Origin: Alphaproteobacteria bacterium
Lineage (GTDB): Bacteria > Pseudomonadota > Alphaproteobacteria > UBA9219
Length of the DNA stretch: 64,000 nucleotides
Direction: 5' to 3'
Assembly: GCA_028683655.1 (NCBI GenBank)
Contig: JAQUHK010000001.1
Coordinates: forward strand, 11,526 to 75,525
Shown: positions 2,278 through 62,897 of the stretch, piece by piece
Layout: every line of letters starts with the position of its first letter
How positions within the stretch are numbered: position 1 is the stretch's first letter
The notes under the pieces: model-generated
Told to the model about the DNA's origin: nothing
Databases searched by the model: none
Seen by the model: only the letters and a program-made list of their open reading frames with translations
Position numbers and translations under genes: made by a program

Positions 2278-5200
2278 TTGACGAATCATGCGGGTATTCA
2301 TACCCATGCATTTGCTTGCCTGAAGCACACTCCTGTACAGAAGAAGGATCATCTTGTGCCTGTATTCCGTTTGAAGCCCTTTGTCTTTGTTGCCGTTTTG
2401 GTTATTGCGGCAATGTCTCTTCCTCTTACGGTCGCTGCGGGGACATGGAGCGGGCAGAAATCGGCTTATCAGTTGATTTTGGACAAGCTGGGCAAGGCTG
2501 ATCCCAAAAGCATGAATCTGGAGCAGGCACAGGCGTTTATCGAAGACCTTAAATCCCTTGCGCAAACGGAAGCGCTTCTTCCTTCGTCCATCTATGGCAA
2601 CAGCGCGACGGGGGCGAGTGGTCGCGAGGCGAGCGCGTGGGAAAAACGGGCGGCGTCGCAGGCTGTGGCGGTGGGGCAGACTCTGAGTGCGTCCAGCACG
2701 GCGGATGTGGCGGCGACGTTGGCGCAGAGCGGGCAGGCTTTGCTGCCGGACGGATCGGGCGCGGCACAGGGCTGGATGCAGGACAAGCTGCGCGGCGCGT
2801 TGGGGCAGACGGATAACAAGATGGCGGCGGGCGCGATCAATGGCGCGACCAGCGAGCTGGCAAGGGGCACCAGCAATCTGGCCAGCGGTTATGCCACGTC
2901 ACAGATCGGCCTGTCGGACGGCGTTGATGCCAGCAGCAGCCTGAACCAGATGGCGCTGCGCACGGGGCTTGAGGGCGCCAAGGGCGCGGCGGCGGCCAGC
3001 TCGGTCTATGCGTTGAGCCACATGGAGATGGACTATACCCTGTCGGGCAGCGGGATCGACGAGTACTTGGCCTTGATGGTGCAGCCGCTTTGGAACAACA
3101 ACGACCTGCATCACAATATCTTTATACAGGGTTCCTATTCCAACAAGGACGTGACCGACGCGTGGGCGGATACAAGCTCGCGCCGCGATACGGTGAACAC
3201 AGGTCTGGCGTACCGCTGGATCACGCCGGATGAACAGCATATGTTCGGGGTGAACAGCTTCTTTGACCACCAGTGGCCGTATCACCATAACCGCATGTCG
3301 CTGGGTCTGGATTACAAGAACAGCCTGTATGGCGTGGCGTTCAACAAGTACTTCGGCCTGTCCGATTGGCGCGGACGGGTTGACGTGTATGAAGAAAAGG
3401 CTCTGGGTGGCGAAGACCTTGAGTTCTCGGGTCGGTTGAGACAGGCCCCTGAGCTTGAGCTGTTCGTGAAGGGCTATCACTGGGCCCAGGAAGCGACGGC
3501 GGTAGTGAACCCCGACGGGGACGACATCTGGGGCTATGAGCTGGCGGCAGAATACGCGCCGATCAACGCCTTCTCGGTGCGTAGCGCGATCAGCAAGGAT
3601 AACGAGATGGACCGCGCGGCGGGCGAGATCACGCTGCGGCTGAACTATGCGTTTGGGCAAGGCTGGGATGATTTGTGGAGTCGACCCCATTATGACCTGA
3701 GTTCGGTGGTGTCGCGGCGGTTTGAGAAAGTGCGGCGCACGAACGAGATACGGGTGCAGACGCGCCAGAACCTGAGCGTGACGGCGCGGGTGACCTATGC
3801 GCAAGGCGCGAATGTGAGCGTGGGGCAAAGCTTGGCCTTTGGCACGACGATAACGACCAGCAGCGCAGCTGGCAATGCCGCAACGGTTCTGTTCGGCAGC
3901 GGGGCGCGGCTTGATATGGGGCAAAGCACCTCGGTCCGGCTTGAGAAGGACAAGGTGGTCTTGATATCCGGCCTTATGCAGTACACGAGCGGCACAGGCG
4001 GGATCACGACGATTACGGTGCCCAACGGCACGATCAACCTGCTGGGCACGGACGTAGATGTGCGCGTGTCGGGCAGCACGACAACCCTGCGCGTCCGCGA
4101 CGGCGCAGCGAACTTCAAGGATGAAAGCGGTACGACCCGCGTGGATAAGGAAGAGCTGGCGGAAAGCCAGCCCAATGACAGCGCCGCGCCACAAATCCGC
4201 GCATCGAGCACGTCGATTTACGAGACGCATGCGAGCGAAGCGCACGAACAGCTTGACCTTGTGGGCCCAACCCCGACGAGCGCAAAGGCCGCGCCCTATG
4301 CGAAGGCAGATGTGAGCGTGAGCGGCACGATGTCTGTGGGACAGACCCTGACCTTTACGGTGCCGCTGAGCGCAGCGGTGAATGTAAGCGGTTCGCCGCA
4401 ACTGGCCTTTACGCTGGGCGGGCAAGACCGGCTGGCGGACTATGCAAGCGGCAGCGGGACGACGAGCCTGATCTTCACCTATACGGTTGTGAGCGCGGAT
4501 GAAACCCTGTCCACGATCATCGCACAAGAAGTCCAGAAGAACGGCGGCAGCTTAACAGGCAGCAACGGTGCTCCCATGGTGTTGACCGTCTCTGGTACCT
4601 CGACCGGCACCGTGCCCGATCTGGTAGCCCCCACGATTACGGCCCTGACGGCGGTAACGAGCGGCAGCACACCGGCAGGCACCAACGACGTGATCACTTT
4701 TACGCTGGATGCGAGTGAAACGCTGGTCAAGAGCGGCAACCCGACCCTGACCTTAGACATTGGCGGTGTAACCCGCACGGCGACGTTCGCAAGCATCACA
4801 TCGGGCAATGCGATCTTCACCTATACGGTGCAGGCTGGCGACAGCGACACGGACGGGATCACGGTGACGGCGCTCAACATAGCCGCCACTGAGCTGACGG
4901 ACGGATCTGGCAATGATCTGGATACAACGCTGACCCTGCCGCAAAATATGAGCATCACGATCACAACATTGATGGGCCTGTCAACTTGCCCCAGCGGCGA
5001 CCTGTCGGCCCCGACGAACGCGGGCTGTGCCAGATTGTTCGGCAGCGACCCGACGAGCCTGAACGACGTGATGGTGTACGCGGGCGACGTTCCGGGCACA
5101 ACGACGGACTTCTTCGTCCGGCGTTGTGACCTCGGCATGACATGGAGCACCGCGACCTCGTCCTGCACCGGCACGCGCAGCACGATGCAGTGGAAGGACA

Positions 5201-5634
5201 GCCTGACGCAGTCGGCCACGACGGACATAGGAACCGGCACGGCATGGGATAATGACAATGCCGCGAACGGCCCGAACAACACGGCCTTGCTCGTGGCGGA
5301 CGCGACGGGCGTGCACGCTGCGGCAGAAACCTGTAACGCATTGGCTGGCGGCGGCTGGTACTTGCCTGCGATCTCTGAGCTTGACGTGATGTATGCCAAC
5401 CTGATTGGCACGGATGATGTGGATCATCCGCTCCCGACGGTGAACAGCGATCTGGATGATGACCACAGCGGCACGACAGGCCCCCTCAGGGCAAGCTTTA
5501 ACACAAGTGGTTCATACTACTGGTCGTCCTCAGAGGGCAGTACTAATGGCGCGTGGATTCAGCGGTTCAGTGACGGCAATCAGAGCAACTACGGCAAGAC
5601 GACCAATTACTATGTTCGGTGTGCCCGGAGATGA
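2278..5634 (+). CDS. inverse autotransporter (intimin/invasin-family, type Ve) adhesin with Ig-like passenger repeats and C-terminal DUF1566 (C-type-lectin-fold) domain; DGR target protein
   Basis: Signal-peptide-like FVFVAVLVIAAMSLPLTVAAG; the true start could be the GTG at 2356. The region NIFIQGSYSNKD...GLDYKNSLYG...ITLRLNYAFGQGWDDLWSRPHY resembles the intimin/invasin beta-barrel. Repeated Ig-like modules (TFTV..SG.P.L.FTLGG....A.Y.SGSGT..L.FTYTV). The C-terminal WYLPAISEL...YYWSSSE..AW.QRFSDG.......YYVRCAR matches the DUF1566/Lcl C-terminal framework. The last 116 bp are the DGR VR. Confidence 0.8.
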   Translation: MTNHAGIHTHAFACLKHTPVQKKDHLVPVFRLKPFVFVAVLVIAAMSLPLTVAAGTWSGQKSAYQLILDKLGKADPKSMNLEQAQAFIEDLKSLAQTEALLPSSIYGNSATGASGREASAWEKRAASQAVAVGQTLSASSTADVAATLAQSGQALLPDGSGAAQGWMQDKLRGALGQTDNKMAAGAINGATSELARGTSNLASGYATSQIGLSDGVDASSSLNQMALRTGLEGAKGAAAASSVYALSHMEMDYTLSGSGIDEYLALMVQPLWNNNDLHHNIFIQGSYSNKDVTDAWADTSSRRDTVNTGLAYRWITPDEQHMFGVNSFFDHQWPYHHNRMSLGLDYKNSLYGVAFNKYFGLSDWRGRVDVYEEKALGGEDLEFSGRLRQAPELELFVKGYHWAQEATAVVNPDGDDIWGYELAAEYAPINAFSVRSAISKDNEMDRAAGEITLRLNYAFGQGWDDLWSRPHYDLSSVVSRRFEKVRRTNEIRVQTRQNLSVTARVTYAQGANVSVGQSLAFGTTITTSSAAGNAATVLFGSGARLDMGQSTSVRLEKDKVVLISGLMQYTSGTGGITTITVPNGTINLLGTDVDVRVSGSTTTLRVRDGAANFKDESGTTRVDKEELAESQPNDSAAPQIRASSTSIYETHASEAHEQLDLVGPTPTSAKAAPYAKADVSVSGTMSVGQTLTFTVPLSAAVNVSGSPQLAFTLGGQDRLADYASGSGTTSLIFTYTVVSADETLSTIIAQEVQKNGGSLTGSNGAPMVLTVSGTSTGTVPDLVAPTITALTAVTSGSTPAGTNDVITFTLDASETLVKSGNPTLTLDIGGVTRTATFASITSGNAIFTYTVQAGDSDTDGITVTALNIAATELTDGSGNDLDTTLTLPQNMSITITTLMGLSTCPSGDLSAPTNAGCARLFGSDPTSLNDVMVYAGDVPGTTTDFFVRRCDLGMTWSTATSSCTGTRSTMQWKDSLTQSATTDIGTGTAWDNDNAANGPNNTALLVADATGVHAAAETCNALAGGGWYLPAISELDVMYANLIGTDDVDHPLPTVNSDLDDDHSGTTGPLRASFNTSGSYYWSSSEGSTNGAWIQRFSDGNQSNYGKTTNYYVRCARR

Positions 5635-5636
5635 AT
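5516..5636 (+). repeat. DGR variable repeat (VR) including the putative IMH at its 3' end
   Basis: Aligns to 6443..6563 without gaps. 11 of 14 mismatches sit where TR has A (VR has G/T/C), all inside TR AAC/AAT codons. The last two mismatches (cgg vs cgt, aga vs agt) are non-A and lie at the GC-rich 3' end, as expected for IMH versus IMH*. Confidence 0.8.
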
Positions 5637-5746
5637 TATTTAATCCTTTAATCATTTTCTTCTGTTCCCGCGAAGCGGGGCGCGGAAAATTTTTAAGGGA
5701 TCATGATGTGTGACATGCGTTTGGGCGGTTAGAAAGTGGTGCGCTA

Positions 5747-6109
5747 ATGGCACAGTACAAACATTTACCGATATATAAGGCCGCTTATGACCTTTTGCTT
5801 CGGTTGATGATGGCGACAAAGGATTTTCCGCGTGATTATAAATACACATTGGGCGAGAAAATGCGGGATGAGGTGTTGGAGCTTATCCTATTTATCTATC
5901 GCGCCAACAGCGCGGCGGATCGCACGGCGCATATCACAGAAATTCTTGAACGCATCCAGCTTGTGGAGGTCATGCTGCGCATGGCCCACGATCTGCGCGT
6001 TCTGCCCCGTGGCAAATATGCGGGGCTTGTAGAAATGACAGACAGCTTGGCGCGTCAAGCGCAAGGCTGGCTTAAAAGTTCGGGGAAGAGGAAGCCAGAA
6101 CAAGTTTGA
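5747..6109 (+). CDS. avd: DGR accessory variability determinant Avd (four-helix-bundle protein)
   Basis: 120-aa basic helical protein between target and TR. Size, position and sequence character (KDFPRDYKYTLGEKMRDEVLEL...) fit the Avd/four-helix-bundle family of DGRs. Confidence 0.7.
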   Translation: MAQYKHLPIYKAAYDLLLRLMMATKDFPRDYKYTLGEKMRDEVLELILFIYRANSAADRTAHITEILERIQLVEVMLRMAHDLRVLPRGKYAGLVEMTDSLARQAQGWLKSSGKRKPEQV

Positions 6110-6442
6110 GTCAAGGCTCGGCTTGGAGAGCGCATTCATCTCGGATAGCGGCGGTGTGCGGAAAAGGAGGTTAACCAGACAAGCTTTACAAGAAACGAGT
6201 GCCCAGCCAAAAACGTCTCGATTTCCTATCCACAGACCTGACGACCTTCGCGCCCAGTATCTTGAAACTGTTTTGTATCACGTCCTTCAAAGCCCACCAA
6301 AGCAGAGGCGAAGGACCTGCCTACGCCAAGGCTTCCGCCGTCGTTCTTCGAACTATGGCGGACAAGTCGGCAAGGCAGGGTCGCTGAAGTCGCCTGTGGT
6401 GAGTCTTCGCCATGGGCGTTCATAAGATCGCTATCAAACGTA

Positions 6443-6563
6443 ACTACTGGTCGTCCTCAGAGAACAATACTAATAACGCGTGGATTCAGCGGTTCAGTGA
6501 CGGCAATCAGAACAACAACAATAAGACGAACAATAACTATGTTCGTTGTGCCCGGAGTTGAAT
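6443..6563 (+). repeat. DGR template repeat (TR)
   Basis: Intergenic copy of the target 3' end. Translated in the VR frame it is Asn-rich (nine AAY codons), typical of a TR. It ends about 40 bp before the RT start codon. Confidence 0.8.
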
Positions 6564-6602
6564 CCTCTTTCCCGATTCAATCTTGTTTTCATAAGGCCTG
6601 TT

Positions 6603-7733
6603 ATGCCCTTTACCCCCGCTGAGCTGACGCTTGAAGTGCTGTTTGATGCCTATTTTGACTGCAGACGCCATAAGCGCAATACGCTGCATCAGTTGGCCTT
6701 TGAAGCCGATCTGGAACGCAACCTTATGTCCCTATGGTATGATTTGCGCGACGGAAATTACCATATCGGGCGCAGTATCGCGTTTGTCGTGACCTATCCC
6801 AAAGCGCGCGAGGTCTGGGCGGCCAGCTTTCGGGATAGGATCGTGCATCACCTGATTTACAATGCGATCAAGGGGCGTTTCTATGCGCGGTTTATCAGGG
6901 ATACCTATGCCTGCATTCCCACGCGCGGGGCGCATGATGGTTGTCGCCGTGTGTCCGGCTTCGCGCGGTCTGTGACTCGCAACTGGACGCGGCCCGCTTT
7001 TGTGTTGAAGGCTGATGTTGCGAGTTTTTTCACCAGCATCAATCACGGCATTCTTCTGGATATTTTACGCCCCCTCGTTCCCGAAGTGTGGTTGTGGGAT
7101 TTGATTTGCCAAGTCGTTCATCACAATCCCCGCGAAGATGCCATTTTTCGCTCAACGAACAGGCTATTCAATCTGGTGCCACTGCATAAAAGCTTGCTTC
7201 ATGCACCTCATGACAGAGGGCTTCCCATCGGCAACCTGACAAGCCAGTTTTTCGCCAATGTCTATATGAACGAGTTGGATCAATTCGCCAAGCACGCGCT
7301 TCGCGCCAAATACTATGGCCGCTATGTCGATGACATTGTGATGTTCGACGAAAGCGCAGAGGTGTTGAACGAACATTATGCGCGGATGGAGACGTTTCTT
7401 TTGGACTATCTCGATTTGCGGCTTCATCCCGATAAAAAGAAACTCCACCCTGCCGCGCAGGGCATTGACTTTGTTGGCTTCGTCATCAAACCCAACCGCA
7501 CCTACCTGCGCAATATGTCGGTTGCACGTTGCAAGCAAAAGATTGCGGCATGGGAGCATAAGGGCTGTCCGTTGGAGCCGGAAGGCCTTGCCAAACTAGG
7601 CGAGTCCGTCACCAGCTATCTGGGTATGTTGCGCCGTGTGAACGGCTACCGCGCCCGAAAATCCCTATGTGGGCATTTCAACAACCTGTTTATCTATCCC
7701 GATAACGAATTTACGAAACTGATTGTGCCTTAA
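6603..7733 (+). CDS. DGR reverse transcriptase
   Basis: RT motifs including RYVDDIVMF (YxDD) and LPIGNLTSQFFANVYMNELD (DGR-typical I/LGxxxSQ motif). The six-frame ORF begins at 6546 inside TR. The first ATG after TR (6603, MPFTPAEL...) is taken as the start. Confidence 0.85.
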   Translation: MPFTPAELTLEVLFDAYFDCRRHKRNTLHQLAFEADLERNLMSLWYDLRDGNYHIGRSIAFVVTYPKAREVWAASFRDRIVHHLIYNAIKGRFYARFIRDTYACIPTRGAHDGCRRVSGFARSVTRNWTRPAFVLKADVASFFTSINHGILLDILRPLVPEVWLWDLICQVVHHNPREDAIFRSTNRLFNLVPLHKSLLHAPHDRGLPIGNLTSQFFANVYMNELDQFAKHALRAKYYGRYVDDIVMFDESAEVLNEHYARMETFLLDYLDLRLHPDKKKLHPAAQGIDFVGFVIKPNRTYLRNMSVARCKQKIAAWEHKGCPLEPEGLAKLGESVTSYLGMLRRVNGYRARKSLCGHFNNLFIYPDNEFTKLIVP

Positions 7734-9004
7734 GCCACCAACTCAAACATCGGCCTACCGTAATCGTCGGCCTTGGCGGTGGTTTGCAGTGGCCGTGCCG
7801 GTGGGATGGGGAAGCCAGCTGCGCCTTGGGGCATGGCGGCGAAGTCCATAGAAGCCGGAAGCATGGGGTGCGGGCCAAGCTTGCGGGTTGTGAGGCCTAG
7901 CTCTTTCAGAGCGGCTGTTATCTCAGGCTCGTTCAGAACGTGGATGCGAATGATCGGTTGTTTGCTGCCGATGATTGGGTAATCATCCGCTGTGCCGCGC
8001 TTTGGCACAAACAGCTCATCCGCGCTTGAGCCATAGGCGGCGCGAAGGATTTCATCGCGGTGGGCCGTGATCGGGATGATGGGGCTGCGTTTTGATTTTG
8101 TTGTGGGTGCGGTTGGCTGTCCCCATCTTCTGTCCTCGATCTCGTCGGATCCCACGCGGATCAGGGAAACCAGCACGTCCTTCAGCTCGCTTCCTTTTGG
8201 CAGATGGCCGTTGCTTGTGATCTGCACCCGCGTCACAGTTTGATCCGTGAAGGTTGAATAGCCTTCCGTAAAGCTGGCCGCGATCTGTTGCGTACCACTG
8301 CCGTTTTCCCAGTGGTTTACAAAGATGCGCCTTGCGGGTGTGCCGTTTGCGGTGAGAATCTCCCGCGTTTCAACCTCCATCGGCCAGCGGGGCTTGAGGT
8401 GATAAAGCCCATCCAGTTCAAAAACCGCGTCTTGTGTTGCTATGCCGAGGCTTGCACCAAAGTGATCGAGCAAAGCAATCATATTGGTGCTGTGCGCCGA
8501 GAATTCGCCGATGCGGCCTCGTGGTGTTGCTCCAAACAGCGGACTGCCTTCGGTCAGCATTTTGCGCATTCGCTCTTGCTCGAAGAGTAAGCCAAGCTGG
8601 GTGCCGCTGTAACAAGGCCTTCCGTTACGATCTTTCAGGAGGGCTTTGATCTGTTCGGGTAACAGGCATGTGTCCTCGCCATAGGTCGCGGCGTAGTGGA
8701 CAATCTGGTTTCCTTCACGGACACCCATAACCGTGGGGAACTCAATCGCTACGCCTATTGGCCTTGGGGTGCAGTTCTCCCACGCGGCCAATAGGAACTG
8801 GGCTTGAATCTTTCCCGTGCGTACCGCATGGATGATGCGGCTGGCCCGCGCCGGATCAAAATATGCGCCGTGGGTTTTGGCTTCATGCCGAATCGCGTCT
8901 TCAAGGGTTTTTCCCAGCATGGCACAATGCACCGGATCATGCGGGTTCATCGTGACAACAGCCAGTTGAAAGCCGCCCAGTCTTTGAAGAAGCGGCTGTT
9001 CCAT
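7730..9004 (-). CDS. hypothetical protein (424 aa), translationally coupled to upstream XRE-family regulator
   Basis: Long ORF of good coding quality. Its start codon overlaps the stop of the 9004..9654 gene. No HipA, Fic, HExxH or nucleotidyltransferase signature could be confirmed by eye. Confidence 0.5.
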   Translation of the reverse strand: MEQPLLQRLGGFQLAVVTMNPHDPVHCAMLGKTLEDAIRHEAKTHGAYFDPARASRIIHAVRTGKIQAQFLLAAWENCTPRPIGVAIEFPTVMGVREGNQIVHYAATYGEDTCLLPEQIKALLKDRNGRPCYSGTQLGLLFEQERMRKMLTEGSPLFGATPRGRIGEFSAHSTNMIALLDHFGASLGIATQDAVFELDGLYHLKPRWPMEVETREILTANGTPARRIFVNHWENGSGTQQIAASFTEGYSTFTDQTVTRVQITSNGHLPKGSELKDVLVSLIRVGSDEIEDRRWGQPTAPTTKSKRSPIIPITAHRDEILRAAYGSSADELFVPKRGTADDYPIIGSKQPIIRIHVLNEPEITAALKELGLTTRKLGPHPMLPASMDFAAMPQGAAGFPIPPARPLQTTAKADDYGRPMFELVA

Positions 9005-9654
9005 TATTTACCCCGTCTTTTGGCGGGTGTGTCTGCCTTCGACCAGAAAAGCTCAAACTCTTGAACATAACGCTCGGTCAAAAACTTTGAATGGATCGTG
9101 ATGAACTCTTTTTTGTGGCTCGACTCGTTGAGCGACATGACGAGATAATCATCATAAATGTAATAGGGCGCCATGACCGCATAGGCCTTATCGAGAGTGC
9201 GATACTCACAGTAAGCAAGGGGTAAGTTAACCTCACCCTTAATGGCCAAGACTTGTGCATCAAGCCCATCAATCTCGCCCATGCGCTGTGTGTGTTCGCT
9301 GACAAAATTATCGGCATAAGGCAAATAGCGTTCGTCACCAAAGTTAAACTGGCGAATACGTCCACCGTCTTTGAGTGTTTCATAAATGTGATCGAGAAGT
9401 TGGCGATAGCCCGCTTTGCCGGAATAGATACGCATATTCTGCTTGCGTATCTTCACGCCTTCATCTTCCAGAAACTCTACGCCGTGCTTGTCAAAAGCAG
9501 CAAGGATGCGGGTTAGTGTTTTTTCTTGGGGCTGCACAAGATCGGATTCAATCTTGCTAATCGTCACACGCGTGGTGCCTGCCTTTTTGGCAAGGTCTTC
9601 GGCCTTCCACTCTAACAGGCCTCGCGCTGCGCGTATTTGACGTCCTGTAATCAT
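9004..9654 (-). CDS. XRE-family helix-turn-helix transcriptional regulator with C-terminal domain of unknown function
   Basis: N-terminal HTH (QIRAARGLLEWKAEDLAKKAGTTRVTISKIES). About 150 aa of unassigned C-terminal sequence. Confidence 0.6.
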   Translation of the reverse strand: MITGRQIRAARGLLEWKAEDLAKKAGTTRVTISKIESDLVQPQEKTLTRILAAFDKHGVEFLEDEGVKIRKQNMRIYSGKAGYRQLLDHIYETLKDGGRIRQFNFGDERYLPYADNFVSEHTQRMGEIDGLDAQVLAIKGEVNLPLAYCEYRTLDKAYAVMAPYYIYDDYLVMSLNESSHKKEFITIHSKFLTERYVQEFELFWSKADTPAKRRGK

Positions 9655-9722: not shown

Positions 9723-10640
9723 TCAACTGGGGGCTGGGACGGGCAAAACAGGCTGTTTGGCTTTCATAAACTCGACCGCCCGCGTGGCATGGGCGGCGGC
9801 GGTGAAGATCAGTTTCTTGTCGCTTTTAAGGGCTTTGAGCCAATGGTCGATATAGGCGGCATGATCCTCGCGGATTTCTGGCGTGATGCCTAAATCCGCG
9901 CAAAGGAAGGCCGCGCCAATCTCGGCAACAAGCTCTTCCTTGGCATAGCCTTCATCACCCCACACGACACGACCAAAGTCGCGGTCAAGGCGGCTCTTGT
10001 GTTTTGTCCAGTGCGTTGTCTCATGGGCAAGCGTGGCGTAATAACTTTCTGCGTCTTTGAAAGCATCGAAGGACGGCATCTGGATATGATCGCTGCCTTC
10101 TGCGTAATAGGCCCTGCCGCCGCCATGCCGGATGACGACTCCCGTATTCATCATAAAATCATCGACGGATACAAGGCGTTCGATAAGGGACGTTTCAGGC
10201 AAAGCCTCTGGGCGAATAAGGAACCGCTCCGGCAAGCCTTCAATCTGTTCGACATTGAACACATTGTACCCGCGCATAAAGGGAATATGTCGCTCGACAT
10301 CCGCGCCCGTCATGGAGTCGGCCTCAAGCTTTGTAATCTTGTCGGCATAAACGATAAAGGAAGATTTCTCACCCTTGCGGACATGCGCCCCATAGACTTC
10401 AGCTTGTTTGAAGGTCATCCAAGTCGGGTTCTGATAACCGCCGCGTAAGGCAGCATCCCATAGGAGTAAAACATTCACGCCGTTATAGGCCTCGCCATTA
10501 TGGCGCAAGGGGCGCATGATACGGCTTGCGGTACTGTCGCCGCTCCAAGGTTTTTGCCAAGGGCGCACCCCTTGCTCAAGATCAGCAATAATCTTTTGCG
10601 TCACACGATCATAGACGTTGAGTTTGGTCGGTTCTGTCAT
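9723..10640 (-). CDS. ardC: ArdC-like antirestriction protein (N-terminal ssDNA-binding DUF1738 domain + C-terminal zincin-like metallopeptidase domain)
   Basis: N-terminus NVYDRVTQKIIADLEQGVRPWQKPW...NGVNVLLLW matches the ArdC N-domain. C-terminal HExxH (LAHETTHWTKH). Confidence 0.8.
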   Translation of the reverse strand: MTEPTKLNVYDRVTQKIIADLEQGVRPWQKPWSGDSTASRIMRPLRHNGEAYNGVNVLLLWDAALRGGYQNPTWMTFKQAEVYGAHVRKGEKSSFIVYADKITKLEADSMTGADVERHIPFMRGYNVFNVEQIEGLPERFLIRPEALPETSLIERLVSVDDFMMNTGVVIRHGGGRAYYAEGSDHIQMPSFDAFKDAESYYATLAHETTHWTKHKSRLDRDFGRVVWGDEGYAKEELVAEIGAAFLCADLGITPEIREDHAAYIDHWLKALKSDKKLIFTAAAHATRAVEFMKAKQPVLPVPAPS

Positions 10641-10738: not shown

Positions 10739-12127
10739 TTACCGTTGCGGCGGTGTGAACGGGACAAACCCAATGGGTGCGAGTTCCGGCCACAGGGTAA
10801 AAAACCGCGCAGGGAACTTGTGACCCCAGACTTTCCAATCGAGGATCGCCGCTTCCGGCCAGCCTTTCTTGGTGGGTGCTGGTCTTGTTGGGGTTGGTTC
10901 TTGCCTCTTGGGTGATATATGTACGGCTTTAATGGAAACGGGACGCAGCGGTTTGTTTGTCTCGGGGGTGTGCGCAGAAGCAAGATTGAATCCAGCCCCT
11001 CCGCCACATGATCTACGCTTGCCCCCATGCTTCTTGGAATTCATACAGCGCATGAGTTCCGAGACAGGGCGCGGACGTAGCGCGGCAAGGTCTGGGAACT
11101 TCTTGTTCAACCCCTTCGCCACGTCCTTGCCAAGCAGTCGATCCAGATTATGCCGCTCACCGTTGCCGTCGATAATGGCAAAACCCTTTAACCCGCGTCC
11201 CAGCGCATACCCCTTCTTGTTGAGGCTTGCGAAGAACGCCGCGCCGGACTTGCTGGCGCGATAGGCCCGTTGCACGCCCTCGCGCACCTGTTGCAGGTCT
11301 GTCGGTTCTTTCTTCTCACGCGGTGCATTGGCTTTAAGCGGCTTACACGCCTTTACCAGTTCGGCATGATCCGGATAATTTTCGCGCTCAATGCCCACGA
11401 GCTTCTGACGCAAGTCAGCCAGCTTCTTTCCCTCAATCTGTCGCATGAGGCCGTGGGTGTCCCCGAACCTATCCACCAGCACCAGTTGACCGCGCTGCCC
11501 CTTCGTTAAAACAAAGCCAGCTTTATCAAGCGCGGCGATAAACTCTTGCGTTGTCGCGTTAGCATGAAAGATGGCCGTAACATCCTTGCGCATCTTGCGC
11601 GGATCAATGCCTGTGCGCTTGCCGCGTTGCATCTCCCATGTCCGTGCGGCCTTACCTTTGATATCTGTTGTCGAGAGGCCAAAGATTTCTTCAAGGCCAC
11701 GAGAGATTTTCCATTCCTTGGTTTTTGACCATTTAAGCTCATGCGTCTTGCCCGTAGTCGGGTTAATAATGTTGAACACAAGGTGAAAATGCTGCTTGCC
11801 CTTCTTCCAATGTTCGACAAGCGCGCAATCATGCCCCACAAGGCCCATATGTTCGGCATAGTACGCCACCATAAATTTTTGTTGAGCCGCGTTTAGGGTT
11901 TCGCCATAGGCAGGGGCAAGGATGGCGTGATAAAGATTGCGCTTCTGCCCCTTGCCATAACCTATAGCTTCCATCTGGCGCAGGGCTTTGGTCAGGTTGC
12001 CACTCGTCAGCCCGTCAAAGGCAAAGCCGCCGAGTTCCTTAACGGAAACAGACTCGTTCTCTTCGGTTTTCTGTAAATGATAGGCGAGGTCTTTCGCACC
12101 GCCGCGTCTGCGCCCCTGAATCCACAT
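10739..12127 (-). CDS. MobA/MobP-family relaxase (mobilization nuclease domain protein)
   Basis: N-terminal relaxase domain (IQGRRRGGAKDLAYHLQK..., histidine motif HFHLVFNIINP). Long basic/Pro-rich C-terminus. Confidence 0.8.
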   Translation of the reverse strand: MWIQGRRRGGAKDLAYHLQKTEENESVSVKELGGFAFDGLTSGNLTKALRQMEAIGYGKGQKRNLYHAILAPAYGETLNAAQQKFMVAYYAEHMGLVGHDCALVEHWKKGKQHFHLVFNIINPTTGKTHELKWSKTKEWKISRGLEEIFGLSTTDIKGKAARTWEMQRGKRTGIDPRKMRKDVTAIFHANATTQEFIAALDKAGFVLTKGQRGQLVLVDRFGDTHGLMRQIEGKKLADLRQKLVGIERENYPDHAELVKACKPLKANAPREKKEPTDLQQVREGVQRAYRASKSGAAFFASLNKKGYALGRGLKGFAIIDGNGERHNLDRLLGKDVAKGLNKKFPDLAALRPRPVSELMRCMNSKKHGGKRRSCGGGAGFNLASAHTPETNKPLRPVSIKAVHISPKRQEPTPTRPAPTKKGWPEAAILDWKVWGHKFPARFFTLWPELAPIGFVPFTPPQR

Positions 12128-12726
12128 CAGCGGTTGCGCTTCGTGTGTTCGTCAATGGCAAGATGAATAATATCGCCAATGTGTTTGTCTTCATGTAAGG
12201 CTAAAGATAGTTTGGCGGCTTGACGCTCGATGGCATAGAGAAAAGACGAAAGGCTCCTGTCGTCCGACCGTCCCATATTAACGTTCTTAACGGCCTGATT
12301 AAACCCATGCCCCAGCTTGGTCAGCTCGTCTTGAAAGTGGTAAAGATTGATCCCGTGAGGTAGCCTTCCGCCATGAAGAGCGTTGGTCAAAACTGACGCT
12401 GCATGGATCAATTGGCTGTGGGTGGCGGCTAAACCCTCCACGTCTGGCAACGCGGACTTGAGCTGCTTACAATTGCCGCCGATCTTGTTCACGATGCCCA
12501 GCAAGTCATGCAGCTCCGTAAAACAGGCCACGGGGCGGCGTTTAAGTGCCTTCAAACAACTTTGTGGCAAGATACGGACGCGCACCAACACCATGAGGAT
12601 AAAGCTTGAAAGCTGCAAACCCTCGCGTTCTGCTGCTTGAACAACAAGGGCTTTTTGTTCGGCATTAACACGCACGACGATCATGCTGTTGCGAGCGCGT
12701 TTTACAGGCATCTTGATTTCTGTCAT
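12127..12726 (-). CDS. mobC: MobC-family mobilization (relaxosome accessory) protein
   Basis: RHH-like segment SMIVVRVNAEQKALVVQAAEREGLQLSSFI. Immediately upstream of, and overlapping, the relaxase gene. Start chosen at the ATG (MTEIKM...) preceded by an AGAGGTG RBS. Confidence 0.65.
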   Translation of the reverse strand: MTEIKMPVKRARNSMIVVRVNAEQKALVVQAAEREGLQLSSFILMVLVRVRILPQSCLKALKRRPVACFTELHDLLGIVNKIGGNCKQLKSALPDVEGLAATHSQLIHAASVLTNALHGGRLPHGINLYHFQDELTKLGHGFNQAVKNVNMGRSDDRSLSSFLYAIERQAAKLSLALHEDKHIGDIIHLAIDEHTKRNR

Positions 12727-12797
12727 AAACACCTCTTGTGTTCTTATTAGGGGAATGAAGCGGGTGCATGGGCGGCAGCCCTGTAAGGCTTCTTTTC

Positions 12798-12838
12798 CAA
12801 AACGTATGACGTTTTGCGAAAGGGCGGGTTCGTATGAC
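12798..12838. promoter_or_regulatory. candidate oriT: perfect inverted repeat CAAAACGT-ATG-ACGTTTTG followed by a repeated CGTATGAC motif, upstream of mobC
   Basis: Seen directly in the sequence. The position relative to mobC/relaxase is typical for oriT. A near-identical palindrome recurs at 15283..15300. Confidence 0.35.
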
Positions 12839-12888
12839 AACGTAATACAACCCACTCCTTGCGAAGCCTGCGACGAAGACTAAAACCC

Positions 12889-13149
12889 TTACTCGTCTGA
12901 CCAGTCACAGCGGCACAGGGGGATCAGGAAAGTGCTGCCGCCCTGTGCCCGTGGCACCTGAATAAAAGTCGTCGTTTCATCATGAAGACCGCATGTTGTG
13001 CGAAACATAAACTCGGTCAGGATCACGGCCATCTGGTCCGGCCATTCGTGGGCAATGGCTTCATAAACAGCGTCAGGCTCCATCTCCATGTAACGCTCGA
13101 TGGCTTGCGTTAAGGCAAGATCAATCAGCTCAGACATATTGGTTCTCAT
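12889..13149 (-). CDS. hypothetical protein (86 aa)
   Basis: ORF only. Confidence 0.3.
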   Translation of the reverse strand: MRTNMSELIDLALTQAIERYMEMEPDAVYEAIAHEWPDQMAVILTEFMFRTTCGLHDETTTFIQVPRAQGGSTFLIPLCRCDWSDE

Positions 13150-13429
13150 GCGAGGCCTACCTTTCTACGATGTGAGGGAAGAGGAAACGCGGGGGTGCAA
13201 TCGGCGTACGTTTCATGCGCCGTTGAAGCTTTTAAAGGCTATAGAAATGGAATGCGGAGAAACAAAAAACCGCCCGTCAAAAAGAGGGGCGGCTGGGTAG
13301 CTTTGCGGCATTTAGACGTATTGCTACGATAACGAATTGATACCAGAAAACATGACCTGCGTCAACGGAAAAGTTATGCTTAATGCAAGATAGTTACGCT
13401 TCGTGTAACGGCGTGTAATATACTTAACA

Positions 13430-13915
13430 TTAACCAAGCTTCCATAACTTAGCCAATGCCTCAAGGGCGCGGTGCAGGGTGCGAAGCTTGACTGTACCGC
13501 CCGCCCATTCATCATGGCCACAAACAGAAATGATAAGAGCCTTCTGCGTGGGCGTTAAAACGCCATAGGCTTCACGCAAGACCCGCTCACTGTGTACAGG
13601 CGTAATGAAGGCCATTTCTGGATCGCCATGAGCTCCTGCGCCTGTGTCTTCTGCGTGAATGCGCAGAACAGCCCGCAAATACGCCGCCTTGAACTTGATC
13701 CCTACACGGTGTTCATCTTGGGTGATCTTGCCACGCAAAAGATAGGCATCCAGCGGCGTATCGCCAATGACCTTATAGCGGCACATAAGGACTTTGTTAT
13801 CGGTATCGCGATCAATGACCTCAGTCACGATCCGGCTTTGGTTGCGCCGCTCCGGTGTCGGGCCTTCGCCCACACGAACTGGAATGCTCTTTCTCTTATG
13901 CAGCCGCGTCGCCAT
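13430..13915 (-). CDS. hypothetical protein (161 aa) of mobile-element backbone
   Basis: ORF of good coding quality. No motif recognised. The overlapping plus-strand ORF 13592..14053 was judged a shadow. Confidence 0.4.
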   Translation of the reverse strand: MATRLHKRKSIPVRVGEGPTPERRNQSRIVTEVIDRDTDNKVLMCRYKVIGDTPLDAYLLRGKITQDEHRVGIKFKAAYLRAVLRIHAEDTGAGAHGDPEMAFITPVHSERVLREAYGVLTPTQKALIISVCGHDEWAGGTVKLRTLHRALEALAKLWKLG

Positions 13916-14147
13916 CGTGCGTTCCTTGGGCTTATGGTTATCTCTTTAATAAATATGCACCACACCAATCAAAACAACTATGCAACAAGTCCTTCTTCCC
14001 AACCCATAGCAAGATTGTTCCGGTTTGTCAACGGTAATTATCATTGCGTATAGTCTAAATATACATGGCATACTTATCAAGAGGCCGTTGTTTGGGAACG
14101 ACAATCAAGGTTTTATGATTAACAGCTCCTACCAAACCCGAAAAAAC

Positions 14148-14195
14148 TTGACTTTTGTTATGCGGGCGTTACATAATGCGTAATCATATGTAACG
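14148..14195 (+). promoter_or_regulatory. sigma70-like promoter (TTGACT-N16-TACATAAT) overlapped by inverted repeat CGTTACAT-N13-ATGTAACG; putative autoregulated operator of the downstream XRE gene
   Basis: Hexamers and palindrome read directly from the sequence. Confidence 0.35.
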
Positions 14196-14212
14196 TGCGT
14201 TTGCGCCACGTT

Positions 14213-14680
14213 ATGCTCACCACCAAAAGAACAAGAAAGGGCACTGCATTGACGGGCACCCCACAGATTCCTAACCGTATCAAGGAACTTCGCGAAGAGC
14301 GGGGCCTATCGTCGCGTGAGCTTGCCAAGCGGATTGGCACCTCCGCGCCCCACATGAGCCGCCTTGAAAACGCCCAGTCACCGCTTAGCATTGAATGGAT
14401 ACTCAAGATCGCGGCGGCTTTGGATGTTAATAGCCACGAGATTATGGACTTGCCGCTTGATCGCAAGCTGGCGGCAAGCTGTGACGATGCACTTCTCGGC
14501 TCGGCCTTGGGCTGGCTTATGGAAGCCGCAGACCGCCACAAGATTAAACTCACCCGCCAAGCCCTCGCGAAATGGGCGAGCTACGTTTACAAAGAAGCCC
14601 TCTCGCAGCCCCTCAACGCCAAGCAAACCAAATACCTCGCCACCACCATCATCAAAGTCCTATCCCAGTCTAAGAAATAG
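14213..14680 (+). CDS. XRE-family helix-turn-helix transcriptional regulator
   Basis: HTH IKELREERGLSSRELAKRIGTSAPHMSRLENAQ. The ORF frame opens at a GTG at 14195; the ATG at 14213 is preferred. Confidence 0.6.
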   Translation: MLTTKRTRKGTALTGTPQIPNRIKELREERGLSSRELAKRIGTSAPHMSRLENAQSPLSIEWILKIAAALDVNSHEIMDLPLDRKLAASCDDALLGSALGWLMEAADRHKIKLTRQALAKWASYVYKEALSQPLNAKQTKYLATTIIKVLSQSKK

Positions 14681-14786
14681 CACACAGGCCATTTAACCAA
14701 GCGCAAGCGGTCGAATCTTGTTGAGATTCAACACCTCTTGCTTGTATTCTTTTCGAATTGCGTCTATTAAGGGACGCCACAAAATG

Positions 14787-14810
14787 ACCGCCCTTCAGGG
14801 CGGTTTTTTT
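14787..14810 (+). terminator. rho-independent terminator (ACCGCCC-TTCA-GGGCGGT + T7)
   Basis: Perfect 7-bp GC stem followed by a T-run. Confidence 0.6.
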
Positions 14811-15516
14811 GTGGCGTGCGCCTCCGCGCGTTCGAACCCGCAGGGTTCGACAAAACGCTTGGTGAGGGCACACCGCAGCCTCCAGCTCGTGAATGAGCCG
14901 CGTCTTCAACAAGGACCCCTTTTTATTGCGGGGTATTTTTGCTGGGGTGATGGAAACTTTCCTGATTTTAGTCTCGCGTGAAAGATGTTTTAGAATATCG
15001 TTATATATCAACAGGTTGGTGGGTGGTCTCGATTTTGAGAAAGCTGTTATACATCAACGACTTAGCCTAAAAAGACTCCCGAACAGACCCGTGAGCGTAC
15101 CAAATGAGGGCTCAGCTCGCTCTCAGAGCCCTTTTTTGTCTCGGTTCGTTGATTCTAAAGGGTTTTTTCTGAATCGAAGAGGCGGCCTTCTGTACCCCGT
15201 TTTTTGAGGGGGCGAGAGGCTTAGAGCCTGTTTACAAAGTGACATCGGATTCGAAAAACAGGGTCATTCCGGCACAGGGCGACAAAACGTATACGTTTTG
15301 CGCGGAGGGCCGTAAGGCCCGAAGTCCGAGGCTTGCCGAGGATACAAACAGGCAAAAAGCCTGTTTGTACAAATCCAGCGGCACGCCCCGCATCAAGTGC
15401 GGGGCAGGCTAGCGGACCAAAAGAGTCTTATGCGCGGCAGACGCCGCGCCACTGGACTCCGGCTTTCGCCGGAGTGACGCAGTTAGGGATAATGTCACAA
15501 GATTGTAAACAGGCTC

Positions 15517-15846
15517 TTACCGTCCCTGCACGATGATGCGGTATTGATAGACGTGGAGCTCGTTGTCGTCGTCGCGGGAGCGGATGATGAGGTTGGTTTC
15601 CCCGATGCCGCCCGTGGCGATCAGGCTGACCACATCGGTGGCTTGCTCGGCCTTGACGATGGAGGGATCGCCGACGGCGACAGACTGGACACGGCCTTGG
15701 TCGGGCATTTCGACTTGGGTGGCCATGCCGACCGTGATGCGGATATCCGGCATGTTGGTCGAGGCTTGGATGATCTTGGGGCTGCTTGAGGCGCAAGCGC
15801 AGGCGGCCAGCAGAACCAGAAGAAGAGAGGCTGTTTTCTTGAACAT
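15517..15846 (-). CDS. small lipoprotein with pilus-assembly N-terminal (CpaC/secretin N-domain-like) fold
   Basis: Lipobox LLAACAC. The segment RITVGMATQVEMPDQGRVQSVAVGDPSIVKA...NLIIRSRDDDNELHVYQYRIIV resembles the T2SS/T3SS pilus N-terminal domain. Confidence 0.45.
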   Translation of the reverse strand: MFKKTASLLLVLLAACACASSSPKIIQASTNMPDIRITVGMATQVEMPDQGRVQSVAVGDPSIVKAEQATDVVSLIATGGIGETNLIIRSRDDDNELHVYQYRIIVQGR

Positions 15847-15945
15847 GGCGATCCTCGTGCAAAAGCGGTTGTCTGGAGCCAGAGTCCCGCTATTGCGCCT
15901 GTGAGTCAAGGTTTTTCCGTGGTGGCGGGCAGGGTGGAGCCTGTT

Positions 15946-16926
15946 TTACGCCGCATTAATCATCGCTTCGAACGCTTCCTCCCATGTGCCTTGGGTGGCG
16001 GCGCGGCTATATTCCGTGGCGCGGGCTTCAAAGAAGTTGGCGTGCTCCGCCGCGTTCATCATTTCGTCCATCCACGGCAGCGGGTTTTTCTCGACGTGAT
16101 AAACGGGTTGCAGATTAAGCTGCTGCAAACGGCGGTCGGCGATATAGCGGATATAGTTTTTCACGTCTTGAGCCGTCATGCCTTCGATGCCGCCCATCTC
16201 AAACGCGAGGTCGATAAAGGCATCTTCATGCGTGACGATTGTTTGGCAAGACTCGGTGAGTTCTTGCTGGAATTGCGGCGTCCAGACCTCGCGGTTTTCT
16301 TCGATAAAGGTGTGGAAGAGGCGGATGATGGACAGCGTGTGCAGCGTTTCGTCTCGCACCGACCATGTGACGATCTGGCCCATGCCTTTCATTTTGTTAA
16401 AGCGCGGAAAGTTCATCAGCATCGCGAACGAGGCGAAGAGTTGCAGCCCTTCTGTAAAGCCGCCAAAGACCGCGAGCGTGCGGGCGATTTCCGTCGGGTT
16501 ACTGCAATTGAAGTTTTGCATGTACTCATATTTGTCCTTCATTTCCTTGTAATGAAGGAAGGCGGAATACTCGATCTCTGGGATGCCGATCGTGTCGAGC
16601 AAATAGGAATAGGCCGCGATATGGATCGTCTCCATATTGGAAAAGGCCGAGAGCATCATCTGGATTTCTGTCGGCTGAAACACCTGCGCATAATGTTTCA
16701 TATAGCAGTTGTTCACTTCCACGTCGGCTTGCGTGAAAAAGCGGAAGATTTGCGTGAGCAGATTCTTTTCGGTATCCGTCAGCTTGCCCGTCCAGTCCTT
16801 GATGTCGTCGGCCATGGGCACTTCTTCGGGCAGCCAGTGAAGCTGTTGCTGCCGGTGCCAGCATTCATACGCCCACGGATAGCTGAAGGGTTTATAGACG
16901 GGATTATGTTCGAGCAGTTTTGACAT
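15946..16926 (-). CDS. nrdB: ribonucleotide reductase class I beta subunit
   Basis: Full-length match to R2 proteins, with a di-metal/tyrosyl region (..SNMETIHIAAYSYLL..). Confidence 0.9.
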   Translation of the reverse strand: MSKLLEHNPVYKPFSYPWAYECWHRQQQLHWLPEEVPMADDIKDWTGKLTDTEKNLLTQIFRFFTQADVEVNNCYMKHYAQVFQPTEIQMMLSAFSNMETIHIAAYSYLLDTIGIPEIEYSAFLHYKEMKDKYEYMQNFNCSNPTEIARTLAVFGGFTEGLQLFASFAMLMNFPRFNKMKGMGQIVTWSVRDETLHTLSIIRLFHTFIEENREVWTPQFQQELTESCQTIVTHEDAFIDLAFEMGGIEGMTAQDVKNYIRYIADRRLQQLNLQPVYHVEKNPLPWMDEMMNAAEHANFFEARATEYSRAATQGTWEEAFEAMINAA

Positions 16927-20715: not shown

Positions 20716-21209
20716 GGCGCGTTGGGTTCGAAGAGGGGGCTGGGCTAGCGGCTCGCCCGCCTTTTCTGCCTTCGGTTTCTGCCTCGTTTTTGATTTGGAA
20801 AAAGTCATTTAGAATCAACGAATCAAGGCTAAAAAGGGCTCTGTGACGCACGGGAGGGCGTCTTGGGTACGCTCGAGGGGCTGTTCGGGAGTCTTTTTGG
20901 CCTAACCCATTGATCTGTAACAGCTTTCTTGAAATCGAGAGTAACGGGCAACCCCTTGATCTAAAACGATTTCTTCAAATCACCTTTTACGGAGAGATAA
21001 AATCGACGAAGTTGGCGTCCAGCGTCTTCCGCTCCTTTCCCCCTTCTGATTTTGGTGCTGATGGAACCTGCCTCGAAACAAAGCGAGTCGTAACGGCAAC
21101 ACTTTGTGAAATGGTTAGCAAAGCGTTAATCAAACGGTTGCGGCGTGAATCCCTGACTCTTACGCTGGCCATGGTGATTCGTTTTCGGTTACGGTCGGTT
21201 TCGGGGATT

Positions 21210-60538: not shown

Positions 60539-60564
60539 GCTCTGGGGACTGTCTCCAAAGAAAA

Positions 60565-60590
60565 GGGAGCCGAAAGGCTCCCTTTTTTGT
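60565..60590 (+). terminator. rho-independent terminator after rpsI (GGGAGCC-GAAA-GGCTCCC + T6)
   Basis: Perfect stem followed by a T-run. Confidence 0.65.
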
Positions 60591-61586: not shown

Positions 61587-61612
61587 GTAAAAAAGGGAGC
61601 CCGAAGGCTCCC
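61587..61612 (-). terminator. rho-independent terminator (GGGAGCC-TTCG-GGCTCCC + T-run on minus strand)
   Basis: Hairpin with a downstream T-run in the minus orientation. Nearly the same hairpin as the rpsI terminator. Confidence 0.5.
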
Positions 61613-61645
61613 TTTAGGGGGATTTTGAAGGTTTTACGTGGCCCC

Positions 61646-62821: not shown

Positions 62822-62897
62822 GGGGCCATAGCTCAGCTGGGAGAGCGCAACAATGGCATTGTTGAGGTCAGGGGTTCGATCCCCCTTGGCTCCACCA
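62822..62897 (+). tRNA. tRNA-Ala (anticodon GGC)
   Basis: Cloverleaf folded by hand. G3:U70 Ala identity pair. Anticodon loop ATGGCAT. T-loop TTCGATC. 3' CCA encoded. Confidence 0.9.

Follow-up and report, generated by a model that had tools for sequence, protein, structure and literature searches.

Two near-identical palindromes at an alphaproteobacterial mobilization locus: one probably an origin-of-transfer repeat, the other probably part of a dispersed intergenic repeat

A 64,000-nt stretch of DNA from an Alphaproteobacteria bacterium of lineage UBA9219 (GenBank GCA_028683655.1, contig JAQUHK010000001.1, positions 11,526 to 75,525; hereafter the window) carries a mobilization (mob) module beside which two near-identical palindromes lie 2.5 kb apart. 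Copy 1 (CAAAACGTATGACGTTTTG) occupies positions 12798-12816 and copy 2 (CAAAACGTATACGTTTTG) positions 15283-15300. On its 3' side copy 1 is followed by CGAAAGGGCGGG and then a second CGTATGAC at 12831-12838, and copy 2 is followed by CGCGGAGGGCCG. The pattern AAAACGT-N0-6-ACGTTTT has two matches in 64 kb, which are the two copies, and 0.00 expected matches (100 shuffles). The pair thus stands in the sequence exactly as the original prediction described it; that prediction proposed copy 1 as a candidate origin of transfer (oriT) and copy 2 as a duplicate oriT or relaxosome-binding site, or else the pair as sub-module boundaries or operators of an XRE regulator. The comparisons below suggest that the copies probably belong to two different things, an oriT repeat and a dispersed repeat, and that the transfer origin is not duplicated.

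Copy 1 sits 72 bp upstream of a minus-strand operon of two genes, a nikA-like accessory gene (12127-12726, 199 aa, start placed from a ribosome-binding site (RBS) and ATG) and a relaxase gene (10739-12127, 462 aa). The relaxase matches PF03432 at 58 bits, so that an HUH-type gene adjoins copy 1, and its H-x-H motif, HFHLVFN, is invariant among 23 homologues. Its match to the NCBIfam TraI_MobP (TraI/MobA(P)) model is weak (42 bits, cut-off 250). The NikA-like protein matches PF21983 at 29.1 bits (cut-off 27) and the ribbon-helix-helix (RHH) protein TacA1, and its predicted model has the RHH layout, with residues 1-21 extended followed by helices at 22-35 and 39-49; the strand SMIVVRV corresponds to residues 14-20. 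The rest of the mobilization module, on the same strand, comprises ArdC (9723-10640), an XRE regulator (9004-9654) and a 424-aa gene of unknown function (7730-9004). To the right of copy 1 are two small genes of unknown function and a plus-strand XRE gene ending at 14680, beyond which lies 0.8 kb of non-coding, hairpin-rich DNA.

Relatives of the relaxase and the NikA-like protein were fetched from metagenomes, and the DNA upstream of nikA was aligned in 10 further loci (eight look-ups; individual loci carry L numbers). The window and these 10 loci share one scaffold: core, inverted repeat A (IR-A), spacer, inverted repeat B (IR-B), GC block and RBS, which in mob sense reads TTCGTCGCAGGCTTCGCAAGGTGTGGGT, IR-A, a CCGCCCTTT-like spacer, a variable IR-B, GATGACGCAGGGGCTnCCGCCCCATGCACCC, and the RBS with nikA. 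In the window the place of IR-B is taken by copy 1, whose outer arms CAAAAC and GTTTTG enclose a single heptad, GTATGAC (plus strand, 12804-12810). Next come the spacer CGAAAGGGCGGGTTC (12817-12831; AGAAAGGGCGG-like in relatives), the nic-proximal repeat IR-A, GTATGAC-AAC-GTAATAC (12832-12848), whose position is kept in 11 loci, and a conserved plus-strand block, ACCCACTCCTTGCGAAGCCTGCGACGAAG (12849-12877), which is the putative region of the nick site (nic). Between IR-B and the nikA RBS, all relatives have a GC-rich block (12762-12783, minus strand, CAGGGCTGCCGCCCATGCACCC in mob sense) that is a probable promoter-proximal element.

The dyad of IR-A is retained throughout the alignment of 11 loci: 6 of 9 pairs show compensatory changes and 94.9% of cells are paired; none of 500 shuffles reached the observed values, and controls slid along the alignment gave 20-59%. 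The sole stretch that is invariant even in the most distant relative, L011, reads GTCGCA(G/A/T)GCT, or AGC(C/T/A)TGCGAC on the plus strand. It corresponds to the core AGCCTGCGAC at 12865-12874, within the conserved block, and no other exact match lies near the mob genes. The heptad GTATKAC occurs at five sites in 64 kb, three of them at 12804-12848. In most relatives IR-B consists of two inverted heptads, as in CAACGTATGAC-AAC-GTCATACATTG (L010) and CAACGTATGAC-ACT-GTCATACGCTG (L081). The window form, CAAAAC-GTCATAC-GTTTTG in mob sense, has one heptad in a short palindrome, and L082 is analogous (GGC-GTTAAAC-GCC).

Copy 1 is therefore best placed, with moderate confidence, as IR-B, the variable nic-distal repeat of an integrated mobilizable element, in the region that would contain both its oriT and its mob promoter. 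The original prediction of an oriT at copy 1 holds for the region, which is oriT-like and lies by a NikA/MobC-like gene and a MobA/VirD2-type relaxase gene, and the 12.7-12.9 kb fragment that it singled out does contain this region. The palindrome itself is the nic-distal repeat, and the proposed nic-like motif GCGAAAGGGCGGG is only the spacer between IR-B and IR-A. Its second CGTATGAC is real and forms part of the conserved nic-proximal IR-A. Beside copy 1 there is also a 7-nt match to the core in inverted orientation, GAAGCCT, of a kind that chance could readily produce.

An alignment of 16 NikA homologues shows variation concentrated at residues 14-18, just before helix 1, with R19 invariant. 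Strand residues 14-20 fall into classes that match the heptads of IR-A and IR-B, with no exception among the following loci: SFLSIR(M/V) occurs with GTGTGAC (L001, L003, L004/L007 and L009), ARLSVRM with GGGTGAC or GGATGAC (L084), (S/A)MIVVRV with GTATTAC or GTATGAC (the window, L008, L010 and L081), and LIIGVRV with GTTTAAC (L082). Since the 7-bp half-sites of IR-A and IR-B change with the N-terminal strand, they are most likely the binding sites of the NikA-like protein. There is an experimental precedent in the pWBG749 family, where each oriT has two binding sites for the RHH protein SmpO, whose specificity can be changed through a single N-terminal residue (PMC8136818).

L001 and L003 are close to the window both in NikA (86-88% identity) and in the DNA to the right of IR-A (about 95%). 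The stretch 12666-12848, which encodes NikA residues 1-20 and runs through the start codon to IR-A, is instead of the MIVVRV/GTATKAC type, unlike L001 and L003. Because a protein and flank like those of L001 and L003 are combined with an N-terminus and sites of another class, it seems that recombination replaced some 180 bp in one piece, bringing in the recognition strand along with the matching heptads.

As in RP4 and R64, the repeats of the window lie 5' of the conserved block on the plus strand, with the mob operon to the same side of the block as the repeats. The MOBP nick consensus is (C/T)ATCCTG^(C/T), where the caret marks the nick (PMC3772185). The best candidate in the window, AAGCCTGC (AAGCCTG^CGAC), agrees with this consensus at 6 of 8 positions, and the position that varies between C, T and A falls within the candidate core. 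Since the core resembles the consensus to this extent but is separated from IR-A by 22 nt, where ~8 nt would be classical, nic is tentatively assigned to the invariant block 12849-12877 on the plus strand as a whole, and a nick after G12870 is a best guess.

Copy 2 has a different setting: it has neither IR-A nor the heptad, and there is no core AGCNTGCGAC within 800 nt of it. It is the first hairpin (P1) of a three-hairpin core (15281-15372) whose 92 nt show 80-83% identity with a repeat in the alphaproteobacterial metagenome-assembled genome (MAG) STD2_238. The second hairpin, P2 (GGGCCGTAAGGCCC, GGGCC..GGCCC, 15307-15320), is followed by GAAGTCCGA, and the third, P3 (15344-15368), differs from STD2_238 by two compensatory changes. 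The core lies within a larger element resembling a miniature inverted-repeat transposable element (MITE) at 15207-15533, which has 22-nt terminal inverted repeats (15216-15237 and 15503-15524) and an inner inverted repeat, GTCATTCCGG (15263-15272 and 15469-15478). The element is non-coding, lies between convergent genes (the XRE gene ending at 14680 and a 130-aa open reading frame, ORF130, ending at 15517), and folds as a closed multi-hairpin structure (z = -11.3 against shuffles). The STD2_238 element is closed by a long terminal stem (z = -7.0).

The STD2_238 repeat came from a scan of one genome per species with the pattern CAAAACGTAT-N0-1-ACGTTTTG, which returned 61 stretches, a number estimated to be roughly at chance level. 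Six of the 61 are on separate contigs of STD2_238, where the 18-mer is embedded in a longer repeat (about 230-330 nt) with 94-97% identity between copies. These copies are intergenic, by genes for ATP synthase, EF-P, 5S rRNA and pyrophosphatase (PPase), and no homologue of any island protein (mob or XRE) was found near them. The possibility that the motif is a widespread genomic repeat unrelated to mob genes, which the original prediction named as its own refutation, is thus borne out for copy 2 and not for copy 1, and a second oriT at copy 2 is not supported, since it has no IR-A, core or NikA heptad and is part of a repeat dispersed away from mob genes in STD2_238.

Two other scan matches are unrelated to transfer. 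L034, which has the same 19-mer, lies beside GTATGA-N16-TCATAC, which we take to be NikR-box-like, upstream of an apparent TonB-dependent receptor gene (judged by sequence), and further GTATGA repeats are present there at 6820-6915. L041, from Bartonella, lies between convergent housekeeping genes judged by sequence to be uppP and engB. A covariance model of the three-hairpin core gave no further copies in 348 kb, and neither a transposase partner nor a target-site duplication was identified for the element at 15207-15533. Rfam, at gathering and E-value thresholds, has no family for the region of copy 1 or copy 2, and plasmid database searches with the mob region, copy 1 and copy 2 in near and distant modes returned only a 56-nt hairpin in Niveispirillum plasmids.

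Intergenic palindromic repeats of the MITE, ERIC and RIME types provide the comparison for the copy-2 element. It is like them in its length (~310 nt), non-coding sequence, terminal inverted repeats, nested hairpins and intergenic position, as well as in being multi-copy and near-identical within one genome (STD2_238) and in having modules that recur as a mosaic: the inner hairpins are common to the window and STD2_238, and the terminal repeats differ. On balance, we regard it as a MITE/ERIC-like dispersed intergenic repeat. A further repeat, AGCCTGTTT, occurs four times within 720 nt (15225-15946) and five times in the window, against 0.7 expected; its sites are in both terminal repeats of the copy-2 element, in the third hairpin and just before the nrdB stop codon.

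The resemblance between the two copies is short. Their 8-nt arms are identical, and identity ends at the palindrome plus an adjacent CG; the 100-nt flanks on each side, in both orientations, are alike only at the level of shuffled sequence. Copy 2 lacks one base of copy 1, G12808, which completes the heptad GTATGAC, so its centre is GTATAC, not GTATKAC, and its half-site spacing is 1 bp off. The arms most plausibly came to be shared by convergence or by short templated copying between nearby palindromes, with no common function. The window contains a second arm-sharing pair, AGGGAGCC-nnnn-GGCTCCCT, at 60564-60583 and 61594-61613, 1 kb apart, and repeated hairpins are therefore not peculiar to copies 1 and 2.

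Several observations weigh against this two-part explanation, which we nevertheless consider somewhat better than even. With about 17 perfect palindromes with arms of at least 8 nt across the window, the chance that two of them have a common arm is estimated at well below 1%, so an 8-nt arm shared over 2.5 kb is unlikely to be pure chance and some link may exist. The nic candidate departs from the MOBP consensus in both sequence and distance, as given above, and a sigma-70 scan called no promoter at copy 1. The copy-2 repeat family was found by exact palindrome match, which biases the conservation of the palindrome there, and the 64-kb window has one copy of the element, multiple copies being seen in STD2_238 only. 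The flank of copy 2 discussed below as a possible nick site also counts on this side.

A link could take the form of one protein, whether an island XRE, NikA or a host factor, that recognises AAAACGT-N2-3-ACGTTTT at both copies. The identical arms with their adjacent CG, the presence of two XRE genes in the island, and a palindrome whose size and symmetry fit a helix-turn-helix dimer would agree with this, yet L001-L003 have no AAACGT-N0-8-ACGTTT even though XRE161 is 96% identical there and XRE216 92% identical (L001). Inverted repeats of another sequence (GTTACATA...TATGTAAC) are present in the promoter region of XRE161, copy 2 has neither the NikA heptad nor the half-site spacing of copy 1, and the same 18-mer is found at the six housekeeping sites of STD2_238; a common factor is accordingly unlikely. 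The two copies also bracket 2.5 kb with three genes, as would be expected if they were direct-repeat ends of an orf86-orf161-XRE segment or a product of recombination. L001-L003, however, have orf86, orf161 and XRE in the same order, 94-98% identical, without either palindrome; the similarity of the window to L003 runs unbroken through XRE and stops at 14779-14782, not at the palindrome, and the flanks of the copies show no duplication. This makes segment ends very improbable. Retention of the XRE genes and gene order without the palindromes argues against both the operator and the boundary proposals of the original prediction.

Copy 2 might also be an orphan MOBP-type oriT, nickable by the relaxase of the island or by another, with repeat, 8 nt and CCTG^T on the minus strand. 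Among 128 palindrome flanks (scan and window), three have CCTGY 8-9 nt from the repeat, all alphaproteobacterial, where about 0.5 would be expected by estimate; some alphaproteobacterial elements therefore seem to use this type of palindrome as their nic-proximal repeat. One of the three is copy 2 itself, whose minus strand reads repeat plus TCGCCCTG^T, with CCTG^T at 8 nt. In L037 (2240-2300, a Rhodospirillales MAG) the palindrome is followed by CGTATCCTGTCCCC, that is, CG and TATCCTG^T, which agrees fully with the MOBP consensus and has the classical spacing; its other strand has ATCCTGC 21 nt away, an rve-domain gene is nearby, and the 5 kb of sequence covered contains no relaxase gene. In L040 (2536-2775, a plasmid-like contig of Magnetovibrio blakemorei) the repeat is followed by C and TATTCCTG^C, with a PF03432 relaxase gene 600 bp off. 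There, CAAAACGTAATACGTTTTG overlaps the stop codon of a 75-aa open reading frame (RHH-like by eye, no Pfam match); beyond it come TATTCCTGC, AT-rich DNA and six iterons (GCGTGACACAGGC), and the relaxase gene is divergent. The geometry of L037 and L040 supports the general instinct of the original prediction that such a palindrome can mark an oriT, and extra oriT copies outside transfer genes are known in staphylococcal plasmids (PMC8136818).

For copy 2 in particular, this idea meets several difficulties. Its hexamer is GCCCTG, whereas RP4 TraI and VirD2 need ATCCTG (PMC3772185); the six STD2_238 copies have no CCTG at the corresponding place; copy 2 has no counterpart of IR-A or of the conserved 27-nt block of the scaffold; and the L040 relaxase is unrelated to that of the window beyond the Pfam domain. 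We consider an orphan oriT improbable, slightly more so than a common binding factor. If it were true, a nickable origin on a dispersed repeat would bear on chromosome mobilization, since a dispersed chromosomal repeat nicked by island or plasmid relaxases could seed the transfer of adjacent chromosomal DNA. A weaker reading in the same vein is that templated copying from this neighbouring host repeat rewrote the IR-B of the island.

Under the preferred explanation, in which copy 1 is an oriT accessory-protein repeat and copy 2 belongs to an unrelated dispersed repeat, the locus would work as follows. Besides the relaxase and NikA-like genes, the integrated, mobilizable element includes a diversity-generating retroelement (DGR), ArdC and an XRE regulator. 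The NikA-like RHH protein would read 7-bp heptads of the form GT(A/G)T(G/T)AC, two in IR-A and one at the centre of copy 1; its binding would bend the DNA and help the relaxase to reach nic in the invariant block 3' of IR-A on the plus strand, and it would probably repress the nikA-relaxase operon. By recombination, the window lineage would have taken a different specificity module, made up of the first 20 residues of NikA together with the DNA between its start codon and IR-A, IR-A included. Copy 2, as the first hairpin of a ~310-nt MITE/ERIC-type intergenic repeat, would have no part in transfer of the island. The positions, conservation, co-variation and repeat membership come directly from the sequences, whereas protein binding, the place of nic, autoregulation and the source of the identical arms are deduced from them.

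The surroundings of the mob module and of copy 2 contain further features. To the left of the module is a complete DGR (2278-7733), with a target gene at 2278-5634 (inverse-autotransporter beta domain and Lcl C-terminal domain), bAvd at 5747-6109 and a reverse transcriptase (RT) at 6546-7733; there is 88% identity between its variable repeat (5516-5636) and its template repeat (6443-6563). The same RT stands at the end of L001, preceded there by an insertion of ParDE. To the right, the window and L003 part at about 14780; a tyrosine integrase gene is present at this point in L003 and absent from the window. A long bidirectional terminator-like hairpin (14774-14817) starts where the similarity to L003 stops and is followed by a palindrome, TCGAACCCGCAGGGTTCGA (14832-14850). 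Identification of TTCGAACCC (14830-14850) as an att site or a piece of a tRNA gene was unsupported, as ARAGORN and Rfam gave only tRNA-Ala at 62822 in the window.

Between nrdB and the copy-2 element is ORF130 (15517-15909, minus strand). It has a T2SS-T3SS pilus N-terminal domain, and its stop codon falls within the right terminal repeat of that element. It is followed by nrdB and nrdA, of which nrdB is nearest to Rhodospirillales-type genomes. Relatives of nrdB did not place the right end of the island: L077, the closest syntenic chromosome, is syntenic from the tad genes to nrdAB, diverges directly after nrdB and has another gene in the place of ORF130, so that 14783-15945 may belong either to the island or to the chromosome. 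An inverted repeat of 130-150 nt (15027-15159 and 20808-20940, 84-89% identical) brackets ORF130, nrdB, nrdA, a metal-resistance gene and a 5-formyltetrahydrofolate (5-FTHF) cyclo-ligase gene. One of its copies ends with a terminator-like hairpin, and the pair could represent paralogous genes for small RNAs or a further family of repeats.

The organization at copy 1 is that of R64 NikA/NikB, RP4 TraJ/TraI and RA3 MobC/Nic, where an RHH accessory gene likewise lies between oriT and the relaxase gene, inverted repeats stand 5' of a conserved nick block on one strand, and the repeats and the mob operon lie on the same side of that block. Unlike these systems, the window has the core AGCNTGCGAC in place of YATCCTGY, at the greater distance from IR-A noted above, a weak relaxase model match, two heptad-based repeats (IR-A and IR-B), and a chromosome-integrated element that carries a DGR. 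The NikA-like motif LLGIVNKIGGNCKQL (GxxNxIGxNxxQL) resembles the GxNxNQ-type motif reported for MOBP auxiliary proteins, and RA3 MobC autoregulates mobC-nic (PMC4175270); autoregulation is likely here too. As in the Staphylococcus aureus plasmid pWBG749, where SmpO acts at ossA and ossB, an RHH factor would set oriT specificity through N-terminal strand residues at two sites, and relatives of that plasmid have switched specificity, with oriT replaced by recombination (PMC8136818). The present system differs in phylum and relaxase family, and in that the N-terminus and sites appear, from the comparison of loci, to have been exchanged as one ~180-bp segment. On sequence the core falls outside the classical MOBP nick class, and the working model is the same. 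The system is a MOBP-like relaxosome of known type with an RHH specificity factor, a new member of that family and a natural example of a module swap.

A common palindrome is insufficient to call a second transfer origin, and copy 2 is better read as a host-type dispersed repeat. For annotation, the finding gives a position for the origin of transfer in a family of mobilizable islands from Alphaproteobacteria that is uncharacterised and includes members with a DGR. The key bases would be those of the heptads (12804-12810 and 12832-12848) and of the core (12865-12874).

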